Positions 1-41,894 of a stretch of 64,000 nucleotides of DNA are shown in pieces. Within the stretch, counting starts at the first letter, position 1. Each line of letters begins with the position of its first letter. Below the pieces are notes generated by a model. That model did not search any database and had not been told where the DNA came from. It saw nothing but the letters and a program-made list of their open reading frames with translations. Origin of the DNA: a virus (lineage: Duplodnaviria; Caudoviricetes); IMG/VR virus record IMGVR_UViG_3300031998_000027, positions 32,001 to 96,000 of that record. One strand, given 5' to 3'. The position numbers and the translations under genes are program-made.

Positions 1-1277
1 ACTCCACAATGGACAATATCAAGAGTAAAATTTTTGTTTTTTCTTTCTACTGCCGTAAGGGCAATAATTAGCTTGTTAACAACATCTTTATTACGATAAA
101 AACTACCACTTACATCAATAAAAAGGTTGAGATGCAGACTACCAAAGCGGTTATTTCCTCTTGCTTCAAGTTTTCTCTCAAAAAAGCGATAATCTTCATT
201 TCCACAATAACGAGGGTTAAGTATTCCACTATGTCCTGTCGTTCCGTTTCCACTACTGTTCTTTTTATTAAAGATACTTATTATATTCATAAGTCTTTCA
301 GTAAGAGAATTATCTATAAAACCGCCAAAAGCATTTGAGAAAATTCTGTCGCCAAGTCCATTTTTGCCACTTTCTCCGTTTTCTTCTTCTTCTCCGTCTT
401 TCGCATTTTTATTATCTTGGTGTTCGTTATTTACATTATCTTCGCCATTTTCACCACTTTCATTATTTTCGCCGTTCTCGCCATTTTCGCCATTTTGAGG
501 AAGATTAGCTTTTTCACCATTTACATTTTCACTAATTTTTTCCTCACCTTTTGTGCTTTTGGAAGCATCAATATTTTCCTTATCTTCTTTTGTTACTCCA
601 TTTTCGTCACTAAAAGTCTGTATCGGAGAAATTCCGTTTTTATCAAAATCTTTACAATCTTTATCATCTTCAAAATTTTGCGAAGCATAGTCAGAGGGAT
701 TTTTGGAAAAATCTTCTAAAACTTTTTTCCAGAGTTTTTCAACATCATTATGATAGTATCTTACTGCCCAATCAATGTAATTATTCTTTGCAGATATAAA
801 AGCATAATTTTTTATAATTTTCTCTACTGCTCTTACAAGAGGTTTTCTACCTATACGATGACGGCAAAGGACAAAAAACGCTTGTTCGGGGCTTGTAATA
901 GGCTCGCCATTATAAGGACTAATTGCATTAAGCAGACCATTAAAGTCTGTATTCATATAATAGCCTTTTAACAGAGTTTCTATTCTTTCATCTTCAAAAA
1001 TATTAAGCCATTTTTCCATCTCTATAAGAGGAGTAAGGACAGCATGTGAAACTTCGTGATAAAGGACGGAGCGAATAGCTACTTCCTTATCAATTTCATT
1101 TGCGCTTGACAGAGCATCTACAATATTCTTGTAGGCAAAGGTTATCTTATCTTCAAGTGGATTATACCGACTTGTTTCTGCTTCATTATCAAAGCATACG
1201 GCAATTTTTCTTTTTGCATAATACCCTATGGGTAGAGTTTCTGCAATCTCTTTAATCTCTGCAAAACTAATTTCCAT
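1..1277 (-). CDS. HEXXH metallopeptidase-like + VWA domain protein (CobT-like MoxR partner); 3' end runs off the window
   Basis: Not in the ORF track. Manual translation from ATG 1277 (MEISFAEIKE...) gives YHEVSH...NIFEDERIE, an acidic GEN-repeat linker and an in-frame MIDAS motif FIDVSGS near 119-102. RBS AAAGGA upstream; adjacent to a MoxR ATPase. Confidence 0.8.
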   Translation of the reverse strand, partial: MEISFAEIKEIAETLPIGYYAKRKIAVCFDNEAETSRYNPLEDKITFAYKNIVDALSSANEIDKEVAIRSVLYHEVSHAVLTPLIEMEKWLNIFEDERIETLLKGYYMNTDFNGLLNAISPYNGEPITSPEQAFFVLCRHRIGRKPLVRAVEKIIKNYAFISAKNNYIDWAVRYYHNDVEKLWKKVLEDFSKNPSDYASQNFEDDKDCKDFDKNGISPIQTFSDENGVTKEDKENIDASKSTKGEEKISENVNGEKANLPQNGENGENGENNESGENGEDNVNNEHQDNKNAKDGEEEENGESGKNGLGDRIFSNAFGGFIDNSLTERLMNIISIFNKKNSSGNGTTGHSGILNPRYCGNEDYRFFERKLEARGNNRFGSLHLNLFIDVSGSFYRNKDVVNKLIIALTAVERKNKNFTLDIVHCG

Positions 1278-1430
1278 TTTCTTTTTCCTTTCTTTTTTTT
1301 GTTCTCTTGTCTTATTGACAAGTCAATTATAGCATACAAAAGTCAAATTGTCAATAGTATTTCAAAAATAGGAATTAGATGTGATACATCTAATTCATAA
1401 AAAGAGAAAAGTGGGAATTTTTCCCACTTT

Positions 1431-2408
1431 TCAGACAAGAGCAGAGAAAAGGTCATCAGCAGACAGAGTAAACTTTTTAGTTACTGCACACCTATCGACA
1501 AGAGGTTCGGGCAGACCATAAGTCATTCCATTTACTGTCAAATTCATCGTGCCGATAATACTGAAATTTTCGCTTATCTCTATGACATTTCCCTTATAAG
1601 TGATAGCAGACTTATTATCCAAAAGACCTTGCAGAAAACGGAGTGTATCATAAGGAAGCAGATTTATCTCGTCCATAACGATTGTTCTTCCGTCCGTCAT
1701 AGCCCGCCAAAAGTCAGAGGGCTTGTAAGTTGCTTTTCCGTCCACAAAGACAAAATCTTCCATAAGGTCAGACGGAAGCATTGAGGAATTGCAGACAATA
1801 GGCTTGCTTCCACTTTCTGTCATAGCTATGGTGGTCTTGCCTGTACCCTGTGAACCGTAGTAAAGTCTAAATCTATGATTGACTACCTTTGTAGGCTCAA
1901 CAAGACTAATATCAAGGAGAATTTTTTCAAATTCCTTTGAAGTGATTTTAGCCTTTATCTCATTACAGTATGGACTATCAATCAATTCAAAGTAATTAGT
2001 TACATACTGCGTAGCAGACTGTCGGTTAATTTTAAGGTTAATAGCAAGTGTATTCACAAAACGGAAATTAGGCTCAAAATCAAATTCCTTGAAAAAGTCC
2101 ATAAGTCCTTTTATACCATTGATTGCCCTTTCCTTTTTCCTTTCATCAGTAAGAGTTTCTACAAGCTCTTCTTTCGTCATTCCAATCTCGGGATAAAAGA
2201 CCTTAGCGACATTTGGATAACGGCGAGAAAACATCTCCTCATCGTTTACAAAACTTGTTCTTGTTCTGTCTGCTTCATTTCTCATAGCACGATAAAAGTC
2301 ATCAAATTCTCTCTCGTGCGCTTTTACGGCAGAGGTTATCTCTACATTATTGAGATAATAAATTCCCTCTTTACTCTTGCGAAAATTAAAACTTGCGCTA
2401 ATAAACAT
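1431..2408 (-). CDS. MoxR/CobS-like AAA+ ATPase
   Basis: Walker A GSQGTGKT, Walker B VMDEIN, sensor IIGTMN, Arg finger LVDR; next to the VWA gene. Confidence 0.85.
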   Translation of the reverse strand: MFISASFNFRKSKEGIYYLNNVEITSAVKAHEREFDDFYRAMRNEADRTRTSFVNDEEMFSRRYPNVAKVFYPEIGMTKEELVETLTDERKKERAINGIKGLMDFFKEFDFEPNFRFVNTLAINLKINRQSATQYVTNYFELIDSPYCNEIKAKITSKEFEKILLDISLVEPTKVVNHRFRLYYGSQGTGKTTIAMTESGSKPIVCNSSMLPSDLMEDFVFVDGKATYKPSDFWRAMTDGRTIVMDEINLLPYDTLRFLQGLLDNKSAITYKGNVIEISENFSIIGTMNLTVNGMTYGLPEPLVDRCAVTKKFTLSADDLFSALV

Positions 2409-2584
2409 TTTTTTCTTCCTTTCTTTTTTTCTTTTTTTTTGTTCTCTTGTCTTATTGACAAGTCTATTATAACATATTTTGCGAAAAAGTCAATAGTTTT
2501 TGCAAAATAGAATTAGATGTAATACATCTAATTAGGAAGAAGGCGCGAGTTGGATAAAAATTCCAATTCGCGCCGTGTGATTTT

Positions 2585-3055
2585 TTAGAAAATCTTTTGA
2601 CATTCACTCGCAAAATATTTTGCGTTAAACTGATTACAAATTTCAGTTACTTTTCTTGTATCACTTTGTGTAGCACAATAAAAATTGAAAAGTGTATGTT
2701 TATCGCTAATTCTTATATAGCTATGCGGAATATCATCAAGAACATTATCAATCTTTTCTGTAAATTCAGTAGGAACAGTCACTTCCACTTTCCACATCTT
2801 GTCCTTTTTCATCTTTTCCTCTATCAGCTTTACGATGAAAACACCGATAACATTACAGACAAAAGTTATAACGCATTTCTGCCACATAGGAAAGTCCATA
2901 ACAGTATAGACAAGGACAATGTTATAAAACGCAAAGTAAGCACCGCTTATTAGGCTTGCAAGCGTTTTACCACTTTTTATAGTAGTGATTGAACGGACAG
3001 TAGAAAAGATAACATTGACAATGGAGAGAACGACAAACACAATAATAAATTTCAT
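2585..3055 (-). CDS. Membrane protein, DUF5698/UPF0316-like
   Basis: Three N-terminal hydrophobic helices with STVRSITTIKSGK, soluble C-terminus; RBS and own promoter. Confidence 0.55.
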   Translation of the reverse strand: MKFIIVFVVLSIVNVIFSTVRSITTIKSGKTLASLISGAYFAFYNIVLVYTVMDFPMWQKCVITFVCNVIGVFIVKLIEEKMKKDKMWKVEVTVPTEFTEKIDNVLDDIPHSYIRISDKHTLFNFYCATQSDTRKVTEICNQFNAKYFASECQKIF

Positions 3056-3163
3056 TTTGATTTTCCTTTCTTTTTCTTTTTGTATACTAATTATAACAAA
3101 ATTTTAGGCAAAAGTCAAGATGGATAATTAGATGTGGTACATCTAATTAAAAAAACGGGGAAA

Positions 3164-3505
3164 TTACTCCCCGTTTTCCTTCTTCTTCCTCTTTGCGCTA
3201 TCTTTTTCTATCTTTTTTGCCTTTTCGGCTTCCGCTTTTGCCTTTTTTTCTGCCTTTTCCTTAACCTTTATTTTATAACTTTCCGCTACTCCATATCCGT
3301 CAAATCCGTCCTCATCTCTTGCGCCAGAGGGTACTTTTATGACAATCTGTATCCATTTGTCATTTCCCTCACTATCAACACAAGGAAAAGCACATTCATT
3401 TGAATTGGTCTGCATTACATCTTCGCCCTTTTCGGCATAGAACTCCATTATAGTCTGTAAGACCTTTTCACGAAGTTCATTATCCAAAACTCTATTATTT
3501 GCCAT
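3164..3505 (-). CDS. Hypothetical protein with lysine-rich C-terminal tail
   Basis: Start adjusted to ATG 3505 (MANNRV) after RBS AAGGAA, downstream of the promoter. Confidence 0.75.
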   Translation of the reverse strand: MANNRVLDNELREKVLQTIMEFYAEKGEDVMQTNSNECAFPCVDSEGNDKWIQIVIKVPSGARDEDGFDGYGVAESYKIKVKEKAEKKAKAEAEKAKKIEKDSAKRKKKENGE

Positions 3506-3631
3506 ATAAAATTCCTTCTTTCTCTTATTTTCTATAAAAATTATATCACAAATTTGCGAAAAAGTCAAATTTTTAATTAGATGTTGTACATCTAATTAGG
3601 GTGAGAGGGGAGATTTCTCTCCCCATTCTCA

Positions 3632-4006
3632 TCAGTCAATCCAATAGACCTTGCGAGTACCAACCTTGGGTATCTTCACATCGGCGCTATTGACTACGCC
3701 CTCGCCAACAAGCTGACGAGCGAGAGAGCCAGCCTTGTTGTGCGACTGTCCAATGCCCGCGCCAAGCTCAACCTCGGTGAACTTCTTGCCCTTGTTGTCA
3801 TTGAGATAGCCAATCAGAGCGGTCTTAATGGGAGCATTAGCTTCCGCCGTCTTGCTCGGCTTCTCAGCGCGCTTCGCCTTGCGCTTCTCAATGAGCGCAA
3901 GCTGACCCCTTGCCCAATCACGAGTATCCTCGGGCAGAGTGCTATTAGCGATAAGGGTGAGATGCTCAATCGTAGTCTTCTTCGGGGCGGTCTCGGTCAT
4001 ATCCAT
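3632..4006 (-). CDS. Winged helix-turn-helix DNA-binding protein
   Basis: C-terminal pattern ALIGYL...FTEVELGAGIGQSHNKAGSLARQLVGEGVV...KVYW; start adjusted to ATG 4006 after GAAAGGA. Confidence 0.65.
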   Translation of the reverse strand: MDMTETAPKKTTIEHLTLIANSTLPEDTRDWARGQLALIEKRKAKRAEKPSKTAEANAPIKTALIGYLNDNKGKKFTEVELGAGIGQSHNKAGSLARQLVGEGVVNSADVKIPKVGTRKVYWID

Positions 4007-4280
4007 AGTGGTCTTTCCTTTCTGCACTTTTAGTGCGCTTGCGTTTGGTCGCAACCCTTTTTTTTGAGGTTCCTGTCCTCTTTTACAAGGTTATTATATC
4101 ACAAAAGCTTTTGTTTGTCAATAGTTTTTTGAAACTTTTTTTGAAAATGTCTGTAGCCACATTTTCGGTTTTTAGTTTCTTTTCCCTCTTGACATTTATA
4201 ATTATATCACAAAATCCCAAAAAGTCAATAGGGTAGAATTAGATGTAATACATCTAATTAAAATTGAGGACAAAAAGTCC

Positions 4281-4433
4281 TCAAGAAAATGTGTTGAAAT
4301 AGACAAAGGTAAATACAGTGAGTACTGTAATAGCTGTTCCCATAAGAAAGCGGCCAAGCCGCTCATTTAATACCATTTGTCCAATTACATTAAGAATAAG
4401 GGTGATAAGATAAAGAACAAAAGTCCATTTCAT
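4281..4433 (-). CDS. Small membrane protein (2 TM)
   Basis: ATG 4433 with RBS AAAGGAG; hydrophobic. Confidence 0.6.
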   Translation of the reverse strand: MKWTFVLYLITLILNVIGQMVLNERLGRFLMGTAITVLTVFTFVYFNTFS

Positions 4434-4447
4434 TTTTATAGCTCCTT

Positions 4448-4633
4448 TCAAATAATACCCATACAAAAAAGGGTTATAAGACAATCCACTGCGACAACGC
4501 CAAATAGCGAGACAAAGCCGATGAGGGCTTCTTTTATTCCACAGTTTATAAACAAATCAATAAAAATCCAGATTAGTGCGACTATACCCGTGGCTATTAG
4601 AATGGATACCGCGATAATTGCTTTAATTTCCAT
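4448..4633 (-). CDS. Small membrane protein (2 TM)
   Basis: RBS AAAGGAG, promoter, hydrophobic 61 aa. Confidence 0.65.
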   Translation of the reverse strand: MEIKAIIAVSILIATGIVALIWIFIDLFINCGIKEALIGFVSLFGVVAVDCLITLFCMGII

Positions 4634-4747
4634 TTTTTGAATTTTCTCCTTTTCTTTTTCTTTTTGTAATTTTATTATACTACATTTTCCAAAAAAGTCA
4701 AGAAGATTAATTAGATGTAATACATCTAATTAGAAAAAAAAGCAGGA

Positions 4748-5041
4748 TTACTCCTGCTCTTTTTCTCTTTCCTTATAGAAGTGAATGATGGTATCCGCCA
4801 TATCATCAGCGATCATACAGGTAACCTTTCCATTATCCCAAGGGAAGCCCATTGACTCAACGAAGCCCTCGAGATGACCATAGTTATCACTATGACAGAT
4901 AACATCAGCGTTCTCAGCCCATTCAAAAACAAGCTGCGCGCCGTCATAGAGACGACGAAACTTAAAGGGAATATCATTCACGAGAAGTCTAACCCCTATA
5001 TGTTCAATGGTAGCGAGGTGAATAGCAACGGCTTTTGTCAT
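4748..5041 (-). CDS. Hypothetical protein
   Basis: ORF with RBS AAAGGAG. Confidence 0.7.
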   Translation of the reverse strand: MTKAVAIHLATIEHIGVRLLVNDIPFKFRRLYDGAQLVFEWAENADVICHSDNYGHLEGFVESMGFPWDNGKVTCMIADDMADTIIHFYKEREKEQE

Positions 5042-5059
5042 TTTTTTTGAAAACTCCTT

Positions 5060-5263
5060 TTATTCTATTACTATAGTAGCGTTAATAACTACTACCTTAT
5101 CATTATTACTAAAATCATACCAAAATCCACTTTCCAAATTGATAGCTGCTCCTGAATTATTAATTTCATCAGTTTTCATAAAAGCTTCATCTTCATACCT
5201 AAAAATCGTTCCCTCTGTAATTTCGCCAAAACTAACCACATTTTTGTCAATAATTCTTGCCAT
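5060..5263 (-). CDS. Hypothetical protein (paralog of 6932-7153)
   Basis: RBS and promoter; shared G-x-x-F-x-Y-[ED]-[DE]-x-x-[FY]-M-x-T...SG...V-x-x-[IV]-N-A pattern. Confidence 0.75.
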   Translation of the reverse strand: MARIIDKNVVSFGEITEGTIFRYEDEAFMKTDEINNSGAAINLESGFWYDFSNNDKVVVINATIVIE

Positions 5264-5387
5264 TTTCTGAAATCTCCTTTTCTTTTTTTTATTTTGTACC
5301 TTTATTATAGCAAAAATTTTGAAAAAGTCAATAGGGTGATTTAGATGTAGTACATCTAACTAAAAAAAGGGAGAAAATCTCCCTTTC

Positions 5388-5591
5388 TTAGTACTCATCA
5401 AAGCCGCTGGCTTCAGCTTCCTCTTCGGTCAGCTTTCCCCCATAAAGGAGTTTGGGCGTTTCGCCCTCTTCGAGATAGAACTCAAGCTCGACAGCAAGCT
5501 TATCGACTATTGTCACTGCCTCACTAAGATAGTTCGCGCCGACAATGAACTGCTTACCGCTATTAAATTCTTCAAACAGATAGTACTTCAT
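5388..5591 (-). CDS. Hypothetical acidic protein (paralog of 9105-9302)
   Basis: Start ATG 5591 (MKYYLFEE); shares LFEE...G..F.[IV]GA and EAE.SG.D.Y. Confidence 0.75.
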   Translation of the reverse strand: MKYYLFEEFNSGKQFIVGANYLSEAVTIVDKLAVELEFYLEEGETPKLLYGGKLTEEEAEASGFDEY

Positions 5592-5709
5592 TTTGAAAGT
5601 CTCCTTTTCTCTCATCTTTGTACCTTTATTATAGCAAAAATTTTGAAAAAGTCAATAGGGAAAGTTAGATGTGATACATCTAATTACTCCCCTTTCGGGG
5701 ATTATTGTT

Positions 5710-5946
5710 TTAGCTTTTAATTTCTATAGTTACAATCGCTACCTGTAGAAGATGGATATTACCGACTTTAGGCCAATCATCATTCACTTTAACGCAATAA
5801 CCGCCGCGTTTCCCTTGTGTTATAGTCCATTTCTCATTACAGGTATATTCTTTATAATATCTATTGCGGATGATGTTTTTTGCCTTTTCAAAAGCTTCAT
5901 CTAAATTTAGAAAATAATGTTTTCTATTTACTAAGTATGCTCTCAT
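5710..5946 (-). CDS. Hypothetical protein
   Basis: ATG 5946 after AAGGGAG; own TTGACA-17-TATACT promoter (about 5999-5971) with no palindrome. Confidence 0.65.
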   Translation of the reverse strand: MRAYLVNRKHYFLNLDEAFEKAKNIIRNRYYKEYTCNEKWTITQGKRGGYCVKVNDDWPKVGNIHLLQVAIVTIEIKS

Positions 5947-6045
5947 GTTTCTCCCTTGCTTTCTGAATACAGTATAGCACACTTGCGGCTATTTGTCAAT
6001 ACCTTTTTCAAAATTTTTTTGCCCGGGCGAAAGCTGACCGCAAGG

Positions 6046-6342
6046 TCAGCAATCATCGGTATAGCACCCCATGTAAGGGTCAAAACCGCAATCCTCGTTA
6101 TAACCCCAATCTTCAAAATCGTTCTCAGGTTCACGCTCAATGGTGGCAACGACCTCGCCAGTATCCCAATCGCAGATGATGCCAAGCATAATGCGAGAGT
6201 TCTGCTCCATCTTGTATTCAATGAAGTCAGCACACTCACGCAGGTCATGCGGCATAGACTCGTTGCGGTAATCAATTACCTCATTGTTGGTATAGGCGAG
6301 GGAGCAATAGAAATGTCCGTAGTTCTCAAACTTGATAATCAT
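6046..6342 (-). CDS. Hypothetical acidic protein
   Basis: RBS AAAGGAG, promoter; C-terminus GFDPYMGCYTDDC. Confidence 0.75.
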   Translation of the reverse strand: MIIKFENYGHFYCSLAYTNNEVIDYRNESMPHDLRECADFIEYKMEQNSRIMLGIICDWDTGEVVATIEREPENDFEDWGYNEDCGFDPYMGCYTDDC

Positions 6343-6517
6343 TTTGTGATTTTCTCCTTTTCTTTCATCTCTGTACCTTTATTATAACACAATTTTTCAA
6401 AAAGGTCAAGTCTTAAAATTAGATGTGTTAAATTAGATGTGATACATCTAATTACTCCCCTTTCGAGGAGAAATTAGTTTTTATAATCGCATCAACAACC
6501 AGGCTGTGCGAGGGTAA

Positions 6518-6751
6518 TTACCCTCGCTTGAAGTCTACATTGACATTAGAAGTAAATATCATTCTCAGTAGAGTAATAATCAGCGTAAGCAGAAGTACAA
6601 GCTTCCAACTGAAAGCGACAGTCCAAGTGCCGATAGCGACTACACCAAACATAGGAAGCAGAGCGCAAATCCCCCAAACAACTCCTGCAAAGCAGAGAAA
6701 AGACAGCGCACAACCTACAATCAGAGCAGTAATCCAAGACAGAATTTTCAT
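6518..6751 (-). CDS. Small membrane protein
   Basis: RBS, hydrophobic. Confidence 0.7.
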   Translation of the reverse strand: MKILSWITALIVGCALSFLCFAGVVWGICALLPMFGVVAIGTWTVAFSWKLVLLLTLIITLLRMIFTSNVNVDFKRG

Positions 6752-6931
6752 TTTTTTTATCTCCTTTTCTTTTTTGTGATTTTATTTATTTTTTATCTCA
6801 TTTACAAGTATATTATAACACAATTTTCAGAAAAATCAAGTCTTAAAATTAGATGTGTTAAATTAGATGTGATACATCTAATTATAGAGGAATAGGGTGC
6901 GGTCGTCGCGCACCCTCTCCTCTTACTCCTT

Positions 6932-7153
6932 TTAGGTGAGGACCAGCTCGGCATTAACGGGCTGAACAAGCTCGTCAAGCTCTATGTGGTACAGCTCGCC
7001 ACTCGCAAAAAAGAGGGCGTTGCAGGCATCTCCGAAGCGGTCCTCTACGACCTCGGTTGCCATATAGACATCCTCGTCATAGATGAAAACATCGCCGACG
7101 AGCAGAGTACTGAGGGGGACCAGAGCAGTAGAAGTGTTGTTAGTGATAATCAT
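6932..7153 (-). CDS. Hypothetical protein (paralog of 5060-5263)
   Basis: Start adjusted to ATG 7153 after AAAGGAG. Confidence 0.75.
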   Translation of the reverse strand: MIITNNTSTALVPLSTLLVGDVFIYDEDVYMATEVVEDRFGDACNALFFASGELYHIELDELVQPVNAELVLT

Positions 7154-7291
7154 TTGTTTTTTCTCCTTTTCTTTTTTTGTGATTTTGTTTGTTCTCTGTC
7201 TCATTGACAAGTCTATTATAACACATTTTTCAGAAAAGTCAATAGAGTGAATTAGATGTAATACATCTAATTATTCCCCTTTCGGGGAAAA

Positions 7292-7480
7292 TTACTCAAT
7301 CTCGAGATATTCGTAGTTGAGCAGGTCACACAGCGCGCTATCAACCGCATTGGCAAGGTTTTCCAGCTCACCATGTATAGAGGAGTGGTCATAGATGCGG
7401 TTTATAAAAGCAAAAACCTCTTCCAAAAACGCGCGGTCTTCCTGAGTGAGAATAAGGGTTTCGGTTGTTTTGATAGTCAT
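7292..7480 (-). CDS. Hypothetical protein
   Basis: RBS, promoter, downstream hairpin. Confidence 0.7.
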   Translation of the reverse strand: MTIKTTETLILTQEDRAFLEEVFAFINRIYDHSSIHGELENLANAVDSALCDLLNYEYLEIE

Positions 7481-7588
7481 TTTAATTTTCTCCTTTTCTT
7501 TTGTTTTTGTACCTTGATTATACTACTTATTGCATAAGTTGTCAATATGGTAAATTAGATGTAATACATCTAATTATGGAGAGAGCCT

Positions 7589-7882
7589 TTACAGGCTCTC
7601 TATCTCTCCAGTCTGAACATTAAAGCGATAGTCGTTGATGTAGCAGTCTTTCGCTTCGTAATAGCTGCCCCTCTCGCCGTTCGGATAGCTTACATACTCT
7701 TTCATAAACGCGCCGATGTGCTTGCGGGTAGTCTGACTATAAGTGCCAGTGCAAGTAAGCCAGCCGTCATGTGTCAGCTCGCACACAAGAGTGACATAGC
7801 TGTAAAGGTAAATATTGCCGTCCTCGTCAATTTCAACATGGGCCTGTGCATAGGGCATCGCGGAAAGTTTCTTGATAATCAT
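7589..7882 (-). CDS. Hypothetical phage protein (YSY.T.V...YSQTTRKH motif)
   Basis: RBS, promoter. Confidence 0.75.
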   Translation of the reverse strand: MIIKKLSAMPYAQAHVEIDEDGNIYLYSYVTLVCELTHDGWLTCTGTYSQTTRKHIGAFMKEYVSYPNGERGSYYEAKDCYINDYRFNVQTGEIESL

Positions 7883-7992
7883 TTGGGAAAATCTCCTTTT
7901 CTTTTGTTTTTGTACCTTTATTATAACAGAAATTTTCGGAAAGTCAATAGTCTGAATTAGATGTAATACATCTAATTAAAAAAAAGTAGAGA

Positions 7993-8232
7993 TTAAATCT
8001 CTACCTTTTTAATTATAAAGTGGTCATAAATCTCGCCCGTCTCGCGACTGACGAGAAGATATGTAAAACCATCTGTGACCGAAGTAGAGTAAAGAATTAC
8101 ATCAGCATCAGAATAGTCTTCGCGCGAACGATAGACATAGTCGCAAGCTTCGTTTAGGCTTCTGTAGGGAATCGGCGAGACATAAAGTTCGTCCTCGACG
8201 GGAGTGCGCGAAATTACGATGTAGCAAGTCAT
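7993..8232 (-). CDS. Hypothetical protein
   Basis: RBS, promoter, terminator overlapping the stop codon. Confidence 0.7.
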   Translation of the reverse strand: MTCYIVISRTPVEDELYVSPIPYRSLNEACDYVYRSREDYSDADVILYSTSVTDGFTYLLVSRETGEIYDHFIIKKVEI

Positions 8233-8344
8233 TAGAAAATCTCTCCTTTTCTTTATCTTTGTACCTTTATTATAACAGAAATTTTCGGAAAGTCAATAGT
8301 CTGAATTAGATGTAATACATCTAATTCGTGAAAAAAGGGGAAAA

Positions 8345-8485
8345 TTACTCTCCCCTTTCAAGTTCCCTTAATTCATCGTGAAGTTTGAACCACTTTCTCT
8401 CGTCTTCGTAGTCCCAAAAATCTTTCATATCAAGGTCAAAGATTTTTTCTTTGAGTTCCTTTATTCTCTTTTCTTTTTCACTCAT
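8345..8485 (-). CDS. Small charged protein, 46 aa (MSEKEKRIKELKEKIFDLDMKDFWDYEDERKWFKLHDELRELERGE)
   Basis: Not in the ORF track; manual translation; RBS AAAGGAG. Confidence 0.65.
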   Translation of the reverse strand: MSEKEKRIKELKEKIFDLDMKDFWDYEDERKWFKLHDELRELERGE

Positions 8486-8499
8486 TGTAATAGCTCCTT

Positions 8500-8664
8500 T
8501 TAGAGTGCGTTGAAAATAATGCCGATGCAGACGACACCCAGCATGCCGACAGCGATGGCAATATAAACCACAGCGGACAGCGGATTGACATACACAGCAA
8601 GCGCAAGTATAATGGCGATGACGGCGAAGATGATGAGAAAAATATCGAAAATTGTCTTTTTCAT
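8500..8664 (-). CDS. Small membrane protein (2 TM)
   Basis: Start adjusted to ATG 8664 after AAGGGAG. Confidence 0.65.
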   Translation of the reverse strand: MKKTIFDIFLIIFAVIAIILALAVYVNPLSAVVYIAIAVGMLGVVCIGIIFNAL

Positions 8665-8768
8665 TTTTGGAACTATCTCCCTTTTCTTTATCTTTTGTAC
8701 CTTTATTATAACAAAAATTTTTGGAAAAGTCAAGAGATAGAATTAGATGTACTACATCTAACTTAATT

Positions 8769-9010
8769 TTCTATAAATAAGGCAAATTACTCCGAGTGAC
8801 TTTTCATCCCCATCCCAAGGGCATTACCACAAGGGCTTAGCTACTGAGTGTCTTTCTTTTTGCCTTATTTATAGAATTGAAAAGGGATTTTGTCAAGGGG
8901 ATTTCAAATTTCTTTGAATTTTTTGAGCAACACCACAAGCCTGCGCATGGCTTCTCTTGCGGTCTCTTTTCTCCGTTTGGGACTTTACGTTTATCTTTCT
9001 CCCCTTGACA
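8769..9010 (-). ncRNA. Putative structured non-coding RNA cassette (two stem-closed units)
   Basis: Promoter-headed cassette with no ORF; 11-bp IR 8891-8901/9000-9010 and 18-bp IR 8769-8786/8859-8876; internal second promoter TTGACA-17-TATAAA. Confidence 0.45.
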
Positions 9011-9104
9011 CTTATATAATACTACTTATTTTATCTTTTGTCAATATCTTAAATTAGATGTAATACATCTAATTATGGAAAATGGGGAAAAATTCCCCAT
9101 CTTC

Positions 9105-9302
9105 TCAATATTTATATTTATCAAGTCCGCTCATTTCAGCTTCTATGTCAGACAGCTCGTCAATGAAAACGACATCGTCAATGTCTTCAACGACACCATC
9201 AGACCACAGGTCTTCAAGGATTGTTAGTGCATCAGCATAATCCTCTGCGCCAATGAGGAAGCGGAAACCCTCGCTAATTTCTTCAAACAGAAAATTTCTC
9301 AT
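9105..9302 (-). CDS. Hypothetical acidic protein (paralog of 5388-5591)
   Basis: RBS, promoter, motif similarity. Confidence 0.75.
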   Translation of the reverse strand: MRNFLFEEISEGFRFLIGAEDYADALTILEDLWSDGVVEDIDDVVFIDELSDIEAEMSGLDKYKY

Positions 9303-9445
9303 TTTTTTTGAAAATCTCCTTTTCTTTTGTTTTTGTACCTTTATTATAAATGATAAATTCTAATCTGTCAATATGTGAAATTAGATGTGTCGTTTTAGAA
9401 TTAGATGTAATACATCTAATTATTTTAGGAAAAAAGAGGACTATT

Positions 9446-9685
9446 TTAGTCCTCTCTCCCATCAAAAAACCATTTTACGGAAAAATCCTCGAAAACCCAT
9501 TCTATGGAAATTCCGTCCTGAAACTCCCAAGAGCTTGCATACATTATGTAGCCGAGAGCCGCCTCAGCTTCTGCCGTGAGGTTCTGCTCGCAGATGTAGA
9601 CTTCTATGACCTCACCACCATCGTCATAGATGTCGCCGAGGTAAGAAAACGGCGCGAGCATATCAAGTATTTCATCGTAAGTCAT
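9446..9685 (-). CDS. Hypothetical acidic protein
   Basis: Start adjusted to ATG 9685 after AAAGGAG. Confidence 0.7.
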   Translation of the reverse strand: MTYDEILDMLAPFSYLGDIYDDGGEVIEVYICEQNLTAEAEAALGYIMYASSWEFQDGISIEWVFEDFSVKWFFDGRED

Positions 9686-9811
9686 TTTTGGAAAATCTCC
9701 TTTTCTCTTAAATTCTGTAATCATTATAAACGATAAATTCCAAAAAGTCAATAGTACGAATTAGATGTGATACATCTAATTTCTAAAAAGGGAAAAAAAC
9801 CCTTTTTAGTT

Positions 9812-10006
9812 TTATGACTTCATTTCATGATAAATAGTTTCCAGAATTTCGAAAAGTTCTGAATCATACTTGTAAGGAATTTCTATGCGATTAATATCCT
9901 CGCAATTTTTGAAAAAGATATGAACTACATTTGTGTAACGATTGACTGATACATTTCTGATTTCTTCACAGTTAATAATCTGATTTTCAAACTTTACTAC
10001 TTTCAT
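9812..10006 (-). CDS. Hypothetical protein
   Basis: RBS GAAAGG; long structured leader. Confidence 0.65.
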   Translation of the reverse strand: MKVVKFENQIINCEEIRNVSVNRYTNVVHIFFKNCEDINRIEIPYKYDSELFEILETIYHEMKS

Positions 10007-10237
10007 GATTTTATAACCTTTCCATAATTTCTATAAAATTTTTGTCAAAGGTTTTTCAGAAAATATTTCACTTTTCTGAAAATTGGTCTATTATTATTTA
10101 ACTACTTAACCTCGTTATTTTGTACTCGGTACCGTTATTCTCGGTTCTCCCCTTTGACATAGACATATTATCACATATTTTAGGAAAAGTCAACGGAATA
10201 AATTAGATGTGATACATCTAATTAAAAAAAAGGAAGA

Positions 10238-10396
10238 TTACTCTTCCTTTTTCTCCCAGTAGCGGATATATACGCCCTTGTGCGCATCTGCGTAGGCGCG
10301 AGCTTCCTTGTAGCTCGCATAGTGCGCGATGACCTTCGCGCCGCGCATAGCGTCAAAGCCCTTGCTCTCGTCGACAGTAACACCATAGATAGACAT
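10238..10396 (-). CDS. Small protein, tandem paralog A (MSIYGVTVD...)
   Basis: ATG 10396 after GAAAGGAG; about 60% identical to 10535-10693. Confidence 0.8.
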   Translation of the reverse strand: MSIYGVTVDESKGFDAMRGAKVIAHYASYKEARAYADAHKGVYIRYWEKKEE

Positions 10397-10534
10397 AGTA
10401 ACTCCTTTCGAGGCGGCCGCCCTTTTGTCGGCTCCGTTCCTCATTGTCTGTATGATACCACATCCGGCGACAACTGTCAATAGACAGAATTAGATGTGAT
10501 ACATCTAATTCCACCACAAAAGAAGAAGGGGAGC

Positions 10535-10693
10535 TCAGCTCCCCTTCACCGCCCAGTAGCGGATATACCGCGAGCGGCTCTCGTCCGCGTAGGCGCGGGC
10601 GTCCTCGTAGCGCTCGAAGTGCGCGATGAGCTTCTCCCCGCGCATGACATCGAAGCCGCGGCTCACATCGACAGTAATCCCATAGATAGACAT
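10535..10693 (-). CDS. Small protein, tandem paralog B (MSIYGITVD...)
   Basis: ATG 10693 after GAAAGGAG. Confidence 0.8.
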   Translation of the reverse strand: MSIYGITVDVSRGFDVMRGEKLIAHFERYEDARAYADESRSRYIRYWAVKGS

Positions 10694-10798
10694 AGTAACT
10701 CCTTTCAGAGGCGGCGACCCTTGCCGTTCGCTCCGTCCCTCATTGTCTATATGATACCACATCGGGCGCAGTCTGTCAATAGGTGGAATTAGATGTGC

Positions 10799-10875
10799 CA
10801 CATCTAATTCTTTAACGATTTAAATCAATGAAGTGCGAGACACATCTAATTCTTTAACGATTTAAATCATTAAAG
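10799..10875. repeat. 29-bp direct repeat (10799-10827, 10841-10869) containing a palindrome half-site, plus a second 24-bp near-perfect palindrome
   Basis: CACATCTAATTCTTTAACGATTTAAATCA twice; CTTTAACGATTTAAATCATTAAAG at 10852-10875. Confidence 0.85.
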
Positions 10876-10884
10876 TGTTAAAGT

Positions 10885-10910
10885 AAAAAGAGGGGAAGCT
10901 CAGCTTCCCC
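10885..10910 (-). terminator. Intrinsic terminator after the nuclease-fold gene
   Basis: GGGGAAGCT/AGCTTCCCC stem followed by TCTTTTT on the minus strand. Confidence 0.75.
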
Positions 10911-10926
10911 GAGGGGCGAGAGGGGC

Positions 10927-11427
10927 TTAGCCCCTCTCAAAGAACTCGTCCGCGGTCGGCAGGTCGAACAGAACGCTTTCGATGTAAGCGGCTATCGGCT
11001 TGGAAGCCTTGGGGCGGACGGTCTCGCTCACATAGAAGCTCTGAATGTGGAGGTGTCCGCGACTGTCCCACTTGGTGAACTGTCCGCGACCCGTGTAGCC
11101 GTTGAGGAACGCGACCCACTGCTCGCGCGTGAACACATAGCCCTGGCTTTCGGCGGGGAAATTGGGGTCAACGTTGGGGCAATAGATGACATACTGAGCC
11201 TTGTCGGCATTCTCAATCTCCCCGCAAGCCGACTTGACCTCGCAGGTGTAGCGCTTGCCATCCTTGGAAAAGCGGATGTCCTCAGCGCCCTGCCTCTTGA
11301 CCTTGTAGCAGCGACGGCGGGAGATATACGAGCGCATAGCAAGCTCGAAAGCATCGCCAAAACGCCCCAAATCCGTAGCCTTACGAATGGAAAGCTCCTC
11401 GCGCATAATGGTGATAGTGTCAATCAT
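10927..11427 (-). CDS. PD-(D/E)XK nuclease-fold protein
   Basis: GDAFE (helix 1)...EDIRF...CEVKS active-site pattern; RBS AAAGGAG. Confidence 0.65.
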   Translation of the reverse strand: MIDTITIMREELSIRKATDLGRFGDAFELAMRSYISRRRCYKVKRQGAEDIRFSKDGKRYTCEVKSACGEIENADKAQYVIYCPNVDPNFPAESQGYVFTREQWVAFLNGYTGRGQFTKWDSRGHLHIQSFYVSETVRPKASKPIAAYIESVLFDLPTADEFFERG

Positions 11428-11491
11428 TTGTTTCTTTCTCCTTTTCTTTTTGTTTGTTTTTGTCCTCGGGGTTTATCCCCTTGACGATTTT

Positions 11492-11520
11492 ATATTAACA
11501 TCTAACCGACATATAATCAA
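11492..11520 (-). promoter_or_regulatory. Promoter of the nuclease-fold gene, with a palindrome half-site in its spacer
   Basis: TTGATT-17 bp-TAATAT with TG; GTTAGATGT at 11506-11498. Confidence 0.65.
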
Positions 11521-11902: not shown

Positions 11903-13231
11903 ATGAAAAATAGATTAGACTTAGATTGGGGGCTCTCTACAGCCAAAGACCGAACCGCCTTTCTAACCGAGTATATAAATGAAGATATATTTGAAAAACG
12001 TCCGCCTAATGAAGACGAACTCGAAACAATGGCGAACTATTTACTGTGGGGACAAGACGAAGACGGACTAAATCCTGACCAACGAAAAGAAATTCAACTC
12101 CCTCGAAAAAACCAAACTTGGAGTGGGAAAGAACCCGAGTCATTAGAGGCCCTTTTGGAGAGTCCTACCTTTTTAGAAAGTGAGGTTTATAAGCTTGGGG
12201 CTGTCGCACCCAAGAAGACCCGCAACGTTTTCAGCCGCGAAGAACTCAAAAAGAAATTAAGTCCCGAAAGCTTAGAACCTTTTGAAACCCTTTGGGAAGA
12301 AATTGATAGGATTGAGATTTTAATTAACTTTTTTGAGATTTTTAAAGGGAAGAGGGAAAAGCCACCGAGAAAAGAACTTTTGGAGAGATTTTCTGAGGAA
12401 GAGGTTGAAACGTTTAAGGCACGAGCCGAACAACTCACTCAATTTAAGTTTTTAAAACTTAAGCATTTACTTGTGGAGTTAAGAAGAGAACAATATACGC
12501 TGAAAGACGCAGTATTGCCGCAAATTGTAAGCTATGGGGAGATTATTGCGCCCGACGAAGAAGAAACTTTTAATTTTGAAATTTTTCCGTTTGGTGAACA
12601 ACAAGATCTTTTGTTTAGAGATTTTGGAGAGTTATTGCCGCAGAATTTTTCAGAAGAAGAACTTAAAACCATTTCAAGTTATTATTGGAAGAAAAAAGAA
12701 GATGAAAAACGTATACGGCGCGAAAGCACTTTCTACTTCGATTTTAGAGAACTAGAAATGGTTTATCAGTTACTGTTACAGCAGGAAGAACTCCGGGGTA
12801 CAACAGAAATTAACCAAAAATTGTTGGATATATTACAGTATTATGTGCGCCAGGCTGACCTTCCTCCCATTCAAGAAAAAATTTTGGTTATGAAGATTAG
12901 AAGGAATAAGAACCAAGATATTGCGAACTTTGTGAATGGGGAGTTTGGAAAGAGTTATACGGCGAATTATATTAGTACGATTTTTCGACAGAAGATTATA
13001 CCTGCAATTAATGAGGTTGCGGCCTATCATGAGAGGATAGTGGGGAGTCTATTTTTTGAAGAGGATTTTAAGACCTGCAGTGGATGCGGCCGGCTTTTAC
13101 TGCGCGACCCCATCAACTTTGTGAGAAGAAGTCGTGCAAAAGATGGACTTAGCAACCATTGTAAGAAGTGTGATAAAGAAGAAAGAGAAAAGAAAAAGGG
13201 AGGTATTATAAAAGATGGCGAAAGATATTAA
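11903..13231 (+). CDS. Putative transcription regulator (sigma region-4-like HTH plus C-terminal Zn ribbon)
   Basis: LPPIQEKILVMK...NQDIA...YISTI helix pattern; CSGC...CKKC. Confidence 0.45.
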   Translation: MKNRLDLDWGLSTAKDRTAFLTEYINEDIFEKRPPNEDELETMANYLLWGQDEDGLNPDQRKEIQLPRKNQTWSGKEPESLEALLESPTFLESEVYKLGAVAPKKTRNVFSREELKKKLSPESLEPFETLWEEIDRIEILINFFEIFKGKREKPPRKELLERFSEEEVETFKARAEQLTQFKFLKLKHLLVELRREQYTLKDAVLPQIVSYGEIIAPDEEETFNFEIFPFGEQQDLLFRDFGELLPQNFSEEELKTISSYYWKKKEDEKRIRRESTFYFDFRELEMVYQLLLQQEELRGTTEINQKLLDILQYYVRQADLPPIQEKILVMKIRRNKNQDIANFVNGEFGKSYTANYISTIFRQKIIPAINEVAAYHERIVGSLFFEEDFKTCSGCGRLLLRDPINFVRRSRAKDGLSNHCKKCDKEEREKKKGGIIKDGERY

Positions 13232-13457
13232 GGGATTTCAGCGCCAACTCCTCCAACTTGAACCAGTTGAATTTATTGGTGTCGCTCGCATTTTAGGGGT
13301 TCAATTGTTTGATGTGGAAAAGAATGAGCCTATGATGTTTGATGAGATTTTTGCGGACATGATGGAGAAATATGCGGGGCTATCGCGCAAACAAAGGCGG
13401 AACTTAGAACGTTTACTGCGCGCGGCCACTAAAAAGGAAGACGATTCAAATGATTAA
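13215..13457 (+). CDS. Hypothetical protein
   Basis: RBS GGAGG, coupled ORF. Confidence 0.7.
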   Translation: MAKDIKGFQRQLLQLEPVEFIGVARILGVQLFDVEKNEPMMFDEIFADMMEKYAGLSRKQRRNLERLLRAATKKEDDSND

Positions 13458-33814: not shown

Positions 33815-33868
33815 TTGAAAGTTGGTAGGCGGCTTCGTGCCGCCTACCTCCTAAAAGGAGTTGAAAAA

Positions 33869-34933
33869 ATGAGTGCGCTAAAAGGAGATTTTATTGGTTT
33901 TACCTTTAATGGAATTCACTCAAGTGAACTTGGGTTAATTAGAGTTAGTGGAGGTAGTCGCTACGATGAAAATCTACTCCCGACTATTCAAGACAAAACC
34001 GTCCAAGTACCCGGCGCTGACGGCACCTATTATTATGGAAGCTATTTTACTCAGCGGCCTATTAATATTTCTGTTGCTTTTGATAATTTGAGTGAGGAAC
34101 AGTTTCATAGGATTAGAACGGTTTTTGGCGACAAGAAAATTCACGATTTAATTTTTGATGAAACTCCTTATAAGGTTTATCGGGTTAAGGCCACAGGCAC
34201 GCCTAATTTGAAATATGTGTGCTTTGATAAGGAACCTGATGAATTAGATAGGGATTATAATAGAGAGAAGATAATAAAGTCAAAACAGGACTTATATGGT
34301 ATTGGCGCGAGGTCACCTTATGGTAGGGTTTATAAGGGTGAAGGGCAGTTAAATTTTGTTTGCTATTCACCTTTCGCGCGGAGCAGATTTAAGTATATTG
34401 ACCAATATACTATTGATAATATACCCGAATGGGGTTCTATGGATACAATTTCAGCTAATGATGTACATTATAACTTATATGATTGGGTTGATAGCGCGGG
34501 ACTGAAGCTGTCTAATGCGGCGGTCAATGGGAAGGTTATCGACCAAGTTACTAGTGAAGGAGTTATGTATTATAATCCAGGAGATAGGCCGACGGATTTT
34601 ATTCTTAAATTTGTTATAGGACAAAATGAAAGTTTTAGCGGTATTACAATTAATGAAGCAATAAGTGATAAATTTATTACTATTGCACCGTTTTCATTAA
34701 TTAATGATGATATTGGTTTTCAAATTAACACAAAATTAAATTTAATTGAGGGATTAAAAGAAATTACTGGTTCAGACCATCAATATGAAGTTTCTGGAAT
34801 TATTTATAATCAATATATTGAAGAAGGAGACTTTTTTAAGCTGCCAATAGTAGAAGATTTAAAATGGCTTTCTTTTGATGATGATATAAGTTTTACTTCT
34901 GCTTCAATTGAGTACAATTATCTCTACTTCTAA
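33869..34933 (+). CDS. Distal tail protein (Dit)
   Basis: FTFNGIHSSELG, VPGADG, LIFDETPYK; follows the TMP. Confidence 0.8.
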   Translation: MSALKGDFIGFTFNGIHSSELGLIRVSGGSRYDENLLPTIQDKTVQVPGADGTYYYGSYFTQRPINISVAFDNLSEEQFHRIRTVFGDKKIHDLIFDETPYKVYRVKATGTPNLKYVCFDKEPDELDRDYNREKIIKSKQDLYGIGARSPYGRVYKGEGQLNFVCYSPFARSRFKYIDQYTIDNIPEWGSMDTISANDVHYNLYDWVDSAGLKLSNAAVNGKVIDQVTSEGVMYYNPGDRPTDFILKFVIGQNESFSGITINEAISDKFITIAPFSLINDDIGFQINTKLNLIEGLKEITGSDHQYEVSGIIYNQYIEEGDFFKLPIVEDLKWLSFDDDISFTSASIEYNYLYF

Positions 34934-34945
34934 GGAGGGCTTACA

Positions 34946-39196: not shown

Positions 39197-39199
39197 AAT

Positions 39200-39228
39200 T
39201 TGATTTCTCCTCAAATTTCTGTTATAAT
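39200..39228 (+). promoter_or_regulatory. Sigma-A promoter
   Basis: TTGATT-17-TATAAT with TG. Confidence 0.7.
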
Positions 39229-39257
39229 AATAATAGAAAATAAAAGGAGTTGACAAA

Positions 39258-39647: not shown

Positions 39648-39686
39648 AAGAAAAGACCTACTGTTAATTCAGTAGGTCTTCTTTTT
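39646..39686. terminator. Bidirectional terminator between convergent arms
   Basis: A-rich - AAGACCTACTG/CAGTAGGTCTT - T-rich. Confidence 0.85.
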
Positions 39687-41691: not shown

Positions 41692-41894
41692 ACTCCACTA
41701 AATTCCATCACAATCTTGCAAACCCAAGCTTCATCTATAATTTCGCCCTTAGAAGTCTTTTTCTTATAGGTGTAGCCTGCGGCCGCAATAACATAGCCCT
41801 TCTCATCAGCTTCTTTTCTATACTGTTCGATGCATTCCTTCGCGCCCTCTTCGCTATTAGTGCGAATTTCCAGGGTTTCCTTTAAGAGTCTCAT
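41679..41894 (-). CDS. Hypothetical protein
   Basis: RBS AAAGGAGG. Confidence 0.7.
   Translation of the reverse strand: MRLLKETLEIRTNSEEGAKECIEQYRKEADEKGYVIAAAGYTYKKKTSKGEIIDEAWVCKIVMEFSGVWEE

Follow-up and report, generated by a model that had tools for sequence, protein, structure and literature searches.

The uncultured virus IMGVR_UViG_3300031998_000027 (Duplodnaviria; Caudoviricetes) carries an array of small gene cassettes headed by copies of one 23-bp palindrome, AATTAGATGT-N3-ACATCTAATT. The window analysed here comprises 64,000 nucleotides and corresponds to bases 32,001-96,000 of this IMG/VR record, whose complete sequence (116,286 bp, with a terminal overlap of 127 bp) is called G000. 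The reading that we favour, with somewhat better than even confidence, is that the palindrome is a shared operator for a phage-encoded dimer, placed where an UP element would lie in each of about 28 independent early promoters, and that it also works as a recombination seam. In this model we infer the binding of a protein, its dimeric symmetry, the direction of the regulation and the identity of the protein that reads the site (the reader).

A search of the window allowing up to two mismatches yielded 21 palindromes, between positions 1373 and 10809, and none in 100 dinucleotide shuffles. Eighteen of them are perfect, two carry one mismatch and one carries two; the central triplet can be GAT, AAT, GGT, TGT, AGT, ACT or GCC. 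The 10-bp half-site is present 42 times in the window (0.34 expected), every time within the array stretch, and there are four extra single half-sites, at 6417, 6847, 9379 and 10842. In the whole window outside the array neither a copy of the palindrome nor a 10-bp half-site was found, and the consensus promoter at 11818 lacks both. Therefore, the initial annotation was right in describing an array of about 21 copies with nearly invariant arms and these seven variable centres, missing from the other promoters of the window. Its number of units is a lower bound, since the search of the rest of the genome adds seven copies to give 28, all of them in the same array of about 16 kb (G000 27,079-42,809), which thus extends beyond the left edge of the window. 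G000 has 45 strong promoter-like sites, 32 in the array and 13 outside; a half-site is found at a fixed distance in 25 of the former and in none of the latter. The functional core of the palindrome is the 19-bp sequence TTAGATGT-N3-ACATCTAA. A full-text literature search for the motif matched only primers and unrelated sequences.

The order of elements on the minus strand is the one initially described and is seen in the units of the window: a terminator hairpin, the palindrome, 6-8 nt, TTGACW, a spacer of 16-17 nt, TATAAT, an A-rich leader, AAAGGAG and a small ORFan gene. The hairpin is GC-rich, mostly with a T-run; in about 19 of the 21 units, 0-10 nt separate its end from the palindrome. 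A near-consensus promoter follows every copy in the window, its TATAAT box mostly accompanied by TG, and, judged by sequence only, TTGACW-16/17-TATAAT elements scoring 10.5-12 of 12 stand behind 26 of the 28 palindromes of G000. When genes are called by their ribosome-binding sites, most units contain one or two open reading frames (ORFs) of 46-113 amino acids (aa). Larger genes are located at the distal end of the array, coding for a 156-aa membrane protein, an AAA_5 ATPase, a 533-aa protein, a 220-aa DnaQ-like exonuclease and an AAA_33 kinase. Host-takeover or anti-defence roles had been proposed initially for the cassette genes; twenty cassette ORFs searched against Pfam and PHROGs gave no Pfam match and no functional PHROG match. 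Some units had been taken as non-coding, which does not hold for at least one of them (10201 to 9782), composed of a long structured leader and a 64-aa ORF with a weak ribosome-binding site.

The distance between the palindrome and the promoter is nearly constant. Of the 28 copies of the 23-mer in G000, 23 leave a gap of 6-8 bp to the -35 box; when strong promoters are counted, the figure is 21 of 26. Five whole IMG/VR records of 80-188 kb (G001-G005), distant relatives of G000, were added to the comparison, and in the six phages this distance is 6-8 bp at 129 of 138 strong promoters and exactly 7 bp at 111. The exceptions also show a pattern. Two G000 copies at 17-18 bp have an inserted A/T-rich UP-like block, which resembles the UP-like tract of the palindrome-less array promoters at 4121, 5999 and 8896, and three copies at 21 or 27 bp are accompanied by an extra half-site exactly 7 bp from the -35 box. 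Among the six phages, most exceptions lie at +10/11 or +20/21 bp, or have a half-site at 7 bp. The core carries as much information as the -35 box and more than the -10 box, and the 7-bp spacer and the terminators contain almost none. According to the position of the hexamers, the palindrome would span from about -66 to -44, with its centre near -55, where an UP element or a class-I factor would be expected. The palindrome is used in either orientation: at the end of the array that lies beyond the window, the copy at G000 27,079 sits 7 bp before a plus-strand promoter.

The five relatives are distant from G000 (about 54-69% identity in DNA polymerases and about 38-61% in capsid proteins), and each carries 17-42 palindromes, always in one array of 8-19 kb with the same layout. 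Eighteen stretches of other IMG/VR contigs contain the exact 23-mer. In both arms, positions 3-10 are unaltered at 172-187 of the 188 sites of the six phages. Positions 1-2 drift, with 12-19 non-complementary double changes each. Since the core is kept and the outer positions change in this manner, the pattern fits the reading of duplex DNA by a symmetric protein and not the upkeep of a hairpin. The initial annotation had proposed a symmetric site linked to promoters and a search for it in related phages; the palindrome does behave as such a site, persisting with fixed geometry and invariant core in six diverged phages, in which flanks and spacer drift, and the array layout recurs in G001-G005 and other viral loci.

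These data also bear on the possibility that the palindrome acts as a nucleic-acid hairpin, either a DNA cruciform, a promoter element like those of phage N4, or an RNA stem-loop serving as second terminator, insulator or processing site. Such a role is very unlikely. The perfect 10-bp stem with its 3-nt loop (-7.7 kcal/mol as RNA) and its location directly after the upstream terminator would suit it, as would one promoter-less copy between convergent units and the existence of symmetric double changes, 10 of them in G002. However, the stem is AT-rich, weak and not followed by a U-run, and what is conserved is the sequence itself, with almost no covariation at the eight core positions. The non-complementary changes of the outer positions point in the same direction. 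In addition, the spacing is constant with respect to the -35 box, not the terminator, and central bases tend towards a palindrome with a 1-nt centre, a feature of no use to a hairpin. For instance, in G003 and G005 the centre is TTA/TAA, giving a 9+1+9 palindrome whose extra symmetry allows no extra pairs in a hairpin. Finally, in contrast to N4, where short DNA hairpins devoid of -35/-10 boxes are themselves the promoters of a virion RNA polymerase, a consensus sigma-70-type -35/-10 promoter follows the palindrome, which makes a hairpin promoter unnecessary.

Thirty-five viral loci, each encoding a relative of the winged-helix protein of the array (see below), were compared. The motif was present in 22 winged-helix loci, at 8-41 copies per 20 kb. 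Among them, L189 shows a symmetric variant, TTAGGTGT-N3-ACACCTAA, at about 20 promoters with the spacing unchanged, and both L187 and G002 contain blocks of two palindrome variants within one phage. Fifteen winged-helix loci without the motif have the same dense promoter arrays with other upstream elements. One type consists of paired AGTTAG-N6-CTAACT palindromes, a GCCGGCG box and an UP-like tract; further types are TTAACA...TTGTAACAATTT boxes or TTGTATACAGTAT boxes. Locus L185, which lacks the TTAGATGT motif, has at 1786-2200 more than 12 tandem AGTTAGT-N4-ACTAACT repeats, one every 20-25 bp approximately, next to a member of the 149-aa family described below; the repeats look like a centromere- or origin-like protein-binding array. 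The qualification of the motif as phage-specific stood in that it is not host-wide, but was too narrow, as it heads arrays in at least 22 uncultured viral contigs.

Could the palindrome have no function of its own, being just part of a promoter-terminator module spread by duplication and homogenised by gene conversion? Near-identical promoter blocks in neighbouring cassettes and the frequent recombination between copies in relatives are what would be expected in that case. Nevertheless, this is the least probable of the explanations considered, and only a marginal one: the palindrome holds as much information as the -35 box and more than the -10 box while the surrounding module has fully diverged between phages, it is retained in phages whose core proteins share only 35-55% identity, and in L189 it has been altered symmetrically as a set.

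A different possibility is that the palindrome is read by a host DNA-binding protein, such as a global regulator or a factor associated with RNA polymerase, which the phage would exploit for the firing or timing of its early promoters. The invariance of the core across phages with very different proteins could be explained in this way, and the readers proposed among phage proteins are candidates only. Nevertheless, we consider it improbable. The 19-bp core (as a 16-base pattern) was searched in one genome per species from 185,579 prokaryote species (596 Gb), and 118 stretches matched, about the number expected by chance. More than one copy appeared in three cases only, all of them short contigs of metagenome-assembled genomes (MAGs) with phage layout. 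A host regulator site used genome-wide, which the initial annotation had named as the finding that would speak against its proposal, was not seen among these species, and a host regulon is unlikely because multi-copy use of the motif is absent from these bacterial genomes. The coexistence of variants in blocks inside G002 and L187 and the lineage-specific replacement of the element, sister phages with the same array design having unrelated upstream elements, favour phage-encoded readers over a host factor.

The same 19-bp TTAGATGT-N3-ACATCTAA sequence does occur in bacteria, at 667-685 of L081 and at orthologous positions in L092, L096, L122, L131 and others (Neobacillus, Bacillus and Priestia). 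It is located downstream of a CodY-box-like sequence and just upstream of a gene coding for a DeoR/MarR-like winged-helix protein of about 110 aa; the next gene codes for an amino-acid permease. In these bacteria it may be an autoregulatory operator, which would be in line with a host reader inasmuch as such bacterial regulators may exist. However, the Neobacillus protein aligns weakly with the phage winged-helix family (hhalign probability 53%), and the residues of the recognition helix differ.

With respect to gene content, G000 and G001 share a backbone formed by the head gene, a winged-helix gene, a gene for a 113-aa protein, a membrane protein gene, an exonuclease gene, a second 113-aa gene and a second winged-helix gene, the first 113-aa gene and the membrane protein gene being in swapped order in G001. 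Almost none of the small cassettes located between backbone genes are common to both phages. The seams were analysed in relatives 88-97% identical in DNA, in pairs that include L204/L205, L208/L209 and L209/L211. Of the 90 ends of alignment breaks, 50 fall no more than 60 bp from the centre of a palindrome, as against 19-27% of random points. At least 14 clean single-cassette insertions or deletions (indels) were found, with an overlap of 25-41 bp in one genome and 330-1,060 extra bases in the other. In one case the junction was resolved to single bases: in L211, the sequence to the left of one L209 palindrome is connected to the sequence to the right of the following one, and the join falls inside the 19-bp core. 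Among close relatives, the proposed modular cassette platform consequently finds support, as cassette content differs by whole-unit indels that join inside the palindrome. Being repeated about 28 times, the palindrome-promoter module would act as a homology seam. A classical recombinase site was rejected, since no integrase or resolvase was found and a centre of 1-3 bp is unlike the core sites of known recombinases.

Several array proteins were evaluated as readers of the palindrome. The 124-aa winged-helix family (window 3632-4006, with a paralogue outside the window) is present in 2-5 copies in every array. Its C-terminal half is modelled as a winged helix (pLDDT 85), with MarR, PadR, TFE and RTP as Foldseek matches (E about 4e-3 to 2e-2), and the recognition helices of G000 and G001 differ from those of G002-G005. 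The 113-aa Lys-tailed family combines an alpha/beta domain with a long Lys-rich helix and has no fold match. Both families were set aside as unlikely specific readers, because phages that lack the motif have them just as often as those that carry it, and no clade follows its distribution. A conserved 102-aa array protein (MTYH..RA.RV.HI...ITDTGITIIK...KTIW) is found in 18 of the 22 motif loci and in none of the 15 others, but it cannot be the universal reader since it is missing from G000 and G001. A 71-aa family associated with the motif was discarded as it is a membrane protein.

The best lead is the 166-aa product of the gene at the head of the array, which is put forward as a tentative candidate and is rather less likely than not to be the reader. 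Its homologues lie directly upstream of the first palindrome, in either orientation, in G001, G003, G004, G005, L204, L209, L210, L211 and L214, and the family is absent from the 15 loci without the motif. Eight aligned members have G21, R32, D50, E63, K65 and G115 as invariant residues, forming a D...ExK pattern, to be compared with the PD-(D/E)xK catalytic core of type II restriction endonucleases. The language-model neighbours of the protein are named restriction endonucleases (score 0.90-0.94), its best Pfam match is RE_EcoO109I (E = 0.085, not significant), and it has no sequence match in PDB. A single half-site is present in the putative core promoter of the head gene, within the spacer in G000 and overlapping the -35 box in G001, and there are only 5-6 extra-array half-sites per genome; this location suggests that the gene might be autoregulated. 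Phages without the motif possess an unrelated 149-aa family, found only there, which shows an E..D..ExK-like pattern and is located beside a dense tandem cluster of their own palindrome.

If the head protein is an active enzyme, the palindrome could mainly be its cleavage or nicking site, the breaks driving recombination, cassette exchange or recombination-dependent replication, and the linkage to promoters would be a by-product of the way in which cassettes are assembled. The invariant D...ExK triad and the restriction endonucleases among the neighbours of the protein are consistent with this, as are the indels of relatives, which join in the palindrome with only 25-41 bp of common sequence, and the half-site scars and 28-bp duplication found beside G000 palindromes. 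This explanation is nonetheless unlikely. A cutter does not need a 7-bp gap to the -35 box, which is kept in the large majority of the promoters (see above) while the spacer sequence drifts, nor extra half-sites placed at exactly 7 bp. Moreover, G002 has the sites and no detectable head gene, about 28 self-sites would be hazardous for an active nuclease unless the DNA is modified, and comparable seams in T4-type phages come from ordinary homologous recombination (PMC2839356). A dual role of the head protein, as a DNA-bound dimer that switches early promoters and as a nuclease or synapsis factor that breaks or pairs palindromes for the exchange of units between co-infecting phages, is given a slightly smaller, equally low chance.

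In the operator model, a phage-encoded protein with two-fold symmetry would bind the palindrome as double-stranded DNA and would switch all of the approximately 28 early units together, the promoters being of sigma-A type. We lean towards a shut-off or damping of the units after the first minutes of infection, because the promoters need no activator and the candidate reader would itself be made early; repressors that act on over-strong early promoters would be comparable. The alternative is a boost through the alpha subunit of RNA polymerase, which a site at -55 that replaces an UP tract could equally recruit. More speculatively, the protein bound right after each terminator might be a roadblock that insulates the units from one another. 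The repeated palindrome-promoter modules would in addition provide the seam for insertion, deletion and exchange of cassettes between related phages.

Several points weigh against this model. The operator has been deduced from sequence, and every protein proposed as its reader is a candidate. The near-consensus promoters have no need of an activator, and -55 is an unusual place for a simple repressor. The 7-bp spacing could partly come from the common descent of duplicated promoter modules, in which substitutions exceed indels, and not from selection on helical phase. As regards the readers, neither the winged-helix nor the 113-aa family, both found in all arrays, follows the distribution of the motif; the head family was not found in G002, which has about 37 sites, lacks significant sequence matches in Pfam or PDB, and phylogeny confounds its association with the motif. 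Moreover, an intact D-E-K triad, as in the head family, suggests an active nuclease and not a passive regulator.

Comparable systems have been described in other phages. In T4-type phages, the PeSL (promoter-early stem-loop) cassettes are inserted and deleted by module recombination (Arbiol et al. 2010, PMC2839356). Both systems have dense arrays of small ORFans in a plastic region, with an own strong sigma-70-type early promoter beside a stem-loop terminator, and cassette indels between close relatives, seen here in the pairs mentioned above. In contrast to PeSL, a third element is present here between terminator and promoter, the AT-rich invariant palindrome of 19-23 bp located 7 bp from the -35 box, and its conservation extends much further than that of the promoter module and reaches very distant phages. 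In PeSL cassettes the conserved repeat consists of the promoter and the GC-rich stem-loop terminator, the latter at variable positions, whereas here the palindrome is the conserved element, and terminators and promoter spacers differ among units and phages. The phage group and its Firmicute-type host signals are also unrelated to T4.

The repressor of mycobacteriophage L5 and other cluster A phages recognizes more than 20 operators and "stoperators" (PMC9283540). As in L5, 20-30 copies of a short intergenic site are found here, including sites at promoters and sites separating units, and one phage reader is postulated. However, the L5 protein acts as a monomer on asymmetric 13-mers oriented according to transcription, while here the site has two-fold symmetry and keeps a fixed distance from the -35 box on either strand. 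Besides, L5 is a lysogeny immunity system, and here no match to Phage_integrase or Resolvase was found across the complete 116-kb record. In SPbeta, the 15-bp element SPBRE is present at about 10 promoter regions. Its prediction in silico preceded by decades the discovery of its reader, the master repressor MrpR/YopR, which turned out to have a tyrosine recombinase fold recruited as repressor (PMC10516654). SPBRE is likewise a promoter element repeated in a large phage, in this case of Bacillus, and MrpR sets a precedent for an operator reader with an enzyme fold. Nevertheless, SPbeta is temperate, MrpR maintains lysogeny, and the sites are fewer, without rigid spacing or cassette array. No tyrosine-recombinase domain was found in G000.

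The small phage proteins phi29 p4 and P2 Ogr bind dyad sites upstream of the -35 box and contact RNA polymerase, resulting in activation or over-stabilisation according to the promoter. They act at one or few sites, and the promoters activated lack a good -35 box, in contrast to about 28 sites at near-consensus promoters here. The host-takeover module of SPO1, a large Firmicute phage, groups many small early genes transcribed with host sigma-A from strong promoters with interspersed terminators. The array is similar in clustering small early genes with many strong host-type promoters and terminators; SPO1 early promoters are not known to have a common palindromic operator. Integron arrays have an integrase and promoterless cassettes closed by imperfect attC hairpins; no tyrosine or serine recombinase was found here, each cassette has its own promoter, and the palindrome is short and perfect with a centre of 1-3 bp. 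Autonomous early cassettes, many-copy phage operators and upstream dyad sites are thus already known ingredients. What is new in the literature searched is their combination: every cassette has an invariant palindrome at a rigid distance from its -35 box, and this arrangement is common to a large clade of uncultured Firmicute-type phages, with lineage-specific variants.

Table 1. Units of the array, the gene at its head and adjoining features. Positions refer to the window unless a genome is named.
Feature	Position	Strand	Description
First late-block gene	11903-13231	plus	442-aa protein; weak match to a phage sigma-factor PHROG (E = 6e-6)
Putative head-gene promoter	11470-11520	minus	TTGATT-17-TAATAT; TTAGATGT half-site in spacer (plus-strand 11498-11505)
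Head-of-array gene	10927-11427	minus	166 aa; invariant D50...E63-x-K65; candidate reader, restriction-endonuclease-like
Duplication	10810-10869	minus	Direct, about 28 bp, with extra half-site 10842-10851; just upstream of unit 1
Unit 1	10751-10809	minus	Palindrome 10787-10809; TTGACA-17-TATCAT with TG; 52-aa ORF 10693-10535
Unit 2	10452-10510	minus	Palindrome 10488-10510; promoter; 52-aa paralogue of unit 1 ORF, 10396-10238
Unit 3	10165-10223	minus	Palindrome 10201-10223; TTGACT-17-TAATAT; structured leader of about 150 nt; 64-aa ORF 10006-9812
Unit 4	9723-9781	minus	Palindrome 9759-9781; promoter; 79-aa ORF
Unit 5	9343-9421	minus	Palindrome 9399-9421; extra half-site 9379-9388, 7 bp from -35; consensus promoter; 65-aa ORF
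Unit 6	9016-9074	minus	Palindrome 9052-9074; promoter; structured RNA or leader; internal promoter 8896
Unit 7	8705-8763	minus	Palindrome 8741-8763 (1 mismatch); promoter; 54- and 46-aa ORFs
Unit 8	8269-8326	minus	Palindrome 8304-8326; promoter; 79-aa ORF
Unit 9	7920-7977	minus	Palindrome 7955-7977; promoter; 97-aa ORF, also in G002, G004 and G005 arrays
Unit 10	7517-7575	minus	Palindrome 7553-7575; consensus promoter; 62-aa ORF
Unit 11	7215-7272	minus	Palindrome 7250-7272; promoter; 73-aa ORF
Unit 12	6812-6883	minus	Palindrome 6861-6883; extra half-site 6847-6856, 7 bp from -35; promoter; 77-aa membrane ORF
Unit 13	6381-6453	minus	Palindrome 6431-6453; extra half-site 6417-6426, 7 bp from -35; promoter; 98- and 78-aa ORFs
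Unit 14	5628-5685	minus	Palindrome 5663-5685 (1 mismatch); promoter; 67-aa ORF
Unit 15	5304-5361	minus	Palindrome 5339-5361 (2 mismatches); promoter; 67- and 97-aa ORFs
Unit 16	4674-4731	minus	Palindrome 4709-4731; promoter; two small membrane ORFs
Unit 17	4201-4259	minus	Palindrome 4237-4259; promoter; long leader; second, UP-type promoter 4121; winged-helix gene 4006-3632
Unit 18	3540-3597	minus	Palindrome 3575-3597; promoter; 113-aa Lys-tailed protein 3505-3164
Unit 19	3090-3148	minus	Palindrome 3126-3148; promoter; 156-aa membrane protein
Unit 20	2466-2533	minus	Palindrome 2511-2533; 17-bp A/T-rich UP-like insert; promoter; 325-aa AAA_5 ATPase
Unit 21	1326-1395	minus	Palindrome 1373-1395; 18-bp UP-like insert; consensus promoter; 533-aa protein, runs off window
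102-aa family, G002	12934-13305		Member in G002
102-aa family, G003	28457-28792		Member in G003
102-aa family, G004	117595-117966		Member in G004
102-aa family, G005	74958-75260		Member in G005

Some features of individual units can be added to those of Table 1. The duplication upstream of unit 1 looks like a scar of recombination or slippage. The gene of the AAA_5 ATPase, which is MoxR/McrB-like (1431-2408, minus strand), adjoins that of the 533-aa protein (2-1277, minus strand); both are ordinary cassettes, and in G004 their homologues are located outside the array. In two units with long leaders (9783-10158 and 8764-9009, both on the minus strand), the 5' end of the RNA, GUCAARGGGGAGAA, pairs with CCCCUUGAC about 100 nt downstream, which in one of them overlaps the internal -35 box. 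The fold z-scores of these leaders are -3.0 and -4.3, and similar 5' hairpins begin many leaders in relatives.

At the far end, a block of five small plus-strand genes (G000 27,079-28,541; L023 13079-14541) lies inside the minus-strand array. It begins at the palindrome used in reverse and terminates at a palindrome without promoter, between convergent units. A second repeat, AAATTTGACA, is present at G000 26,212-27,070 (L023 12212-13070) in both orientations, once as TGTCAAATTTTGACA. Its 7-9 copies are clustered around the winged-helix paralogue of the array end and it is found almost nowhere else in G000; this cluster may be a second set of operators or an origin-like region.

The G000 genome comprises a plus-strand block containing clpP and phoH, followed by the minus-strand array and then by a plus-strand late block with terminase, portal and capsid genes. 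The replication block, on the minus strand, encodes a family-A type DNA polymerase, a helicase, a RecJ-like exonuclease, a topoisomerase and an anaerobic ribonucleotide reductase. The 442-aa protein of the first late gene has a C-terminal zinc-ribbon-like segment, and its gene is preceded by the consensus host-type promoter at 11818, without palindrome. No Rfam family was detected in the 82 kb scanned. Among the catalogued phages of INPHARED, no DNA match was obtained by megablast of the array and no protein match by tblastn of one neighbouring protein. The ribosome-binding sites (AAAGGAG) and promoters of G000 are Firmicute-like, and the short MAG contigs with the same array were binned as Acutalibacteraceae, Oscillospiraceae or Bacillota, which hints at an Oscillospirales host, the bin membership of phage fragments being weak evidence.

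The terminase and portal homologues of G002-G005 (loci L030-L059) carry 5-9 in-frame TAG codons per late gene. Their DNA polymerase and all their array genes have none, and G000 and G001 use the standard code. The gene of the 442-aa protein appears broken into several ORFs in the TAG-recoded relatives when read in standard code. This distribution of codons suggests that TAG recoding would be limited to late genes in part of the phage group. Early expression of the arrays fits the presence of TAG codons in late genes only.

The arrays hold the most variable genes of these large uncultured gut and rumen phages, and functions of counter-defence and host takeover usually sit among such genes. The invariant site marks early genes and cassette borders straight from metagenome sequence, and it predicts a master switch that can be looked for with the 23-mer. 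For Firmicute hosts, the array offers natural portable parts, namely promoters, operators and terminators. The presence of different palindromes at the same position, some of them apparently beside lineage-specific nuclease-fold proteins, may show the joint diversification of regulators and operators or of nucleases and their sites. If the dual role of the head protein were true, these lytic phages would possess an integron-like cassette system with a nuclease-fold protein instead of an integrase and with lineage-specific pairs of protein and palindrome. In any case, the group may show how accessory genes can be shuffled without disrupting essential operons.

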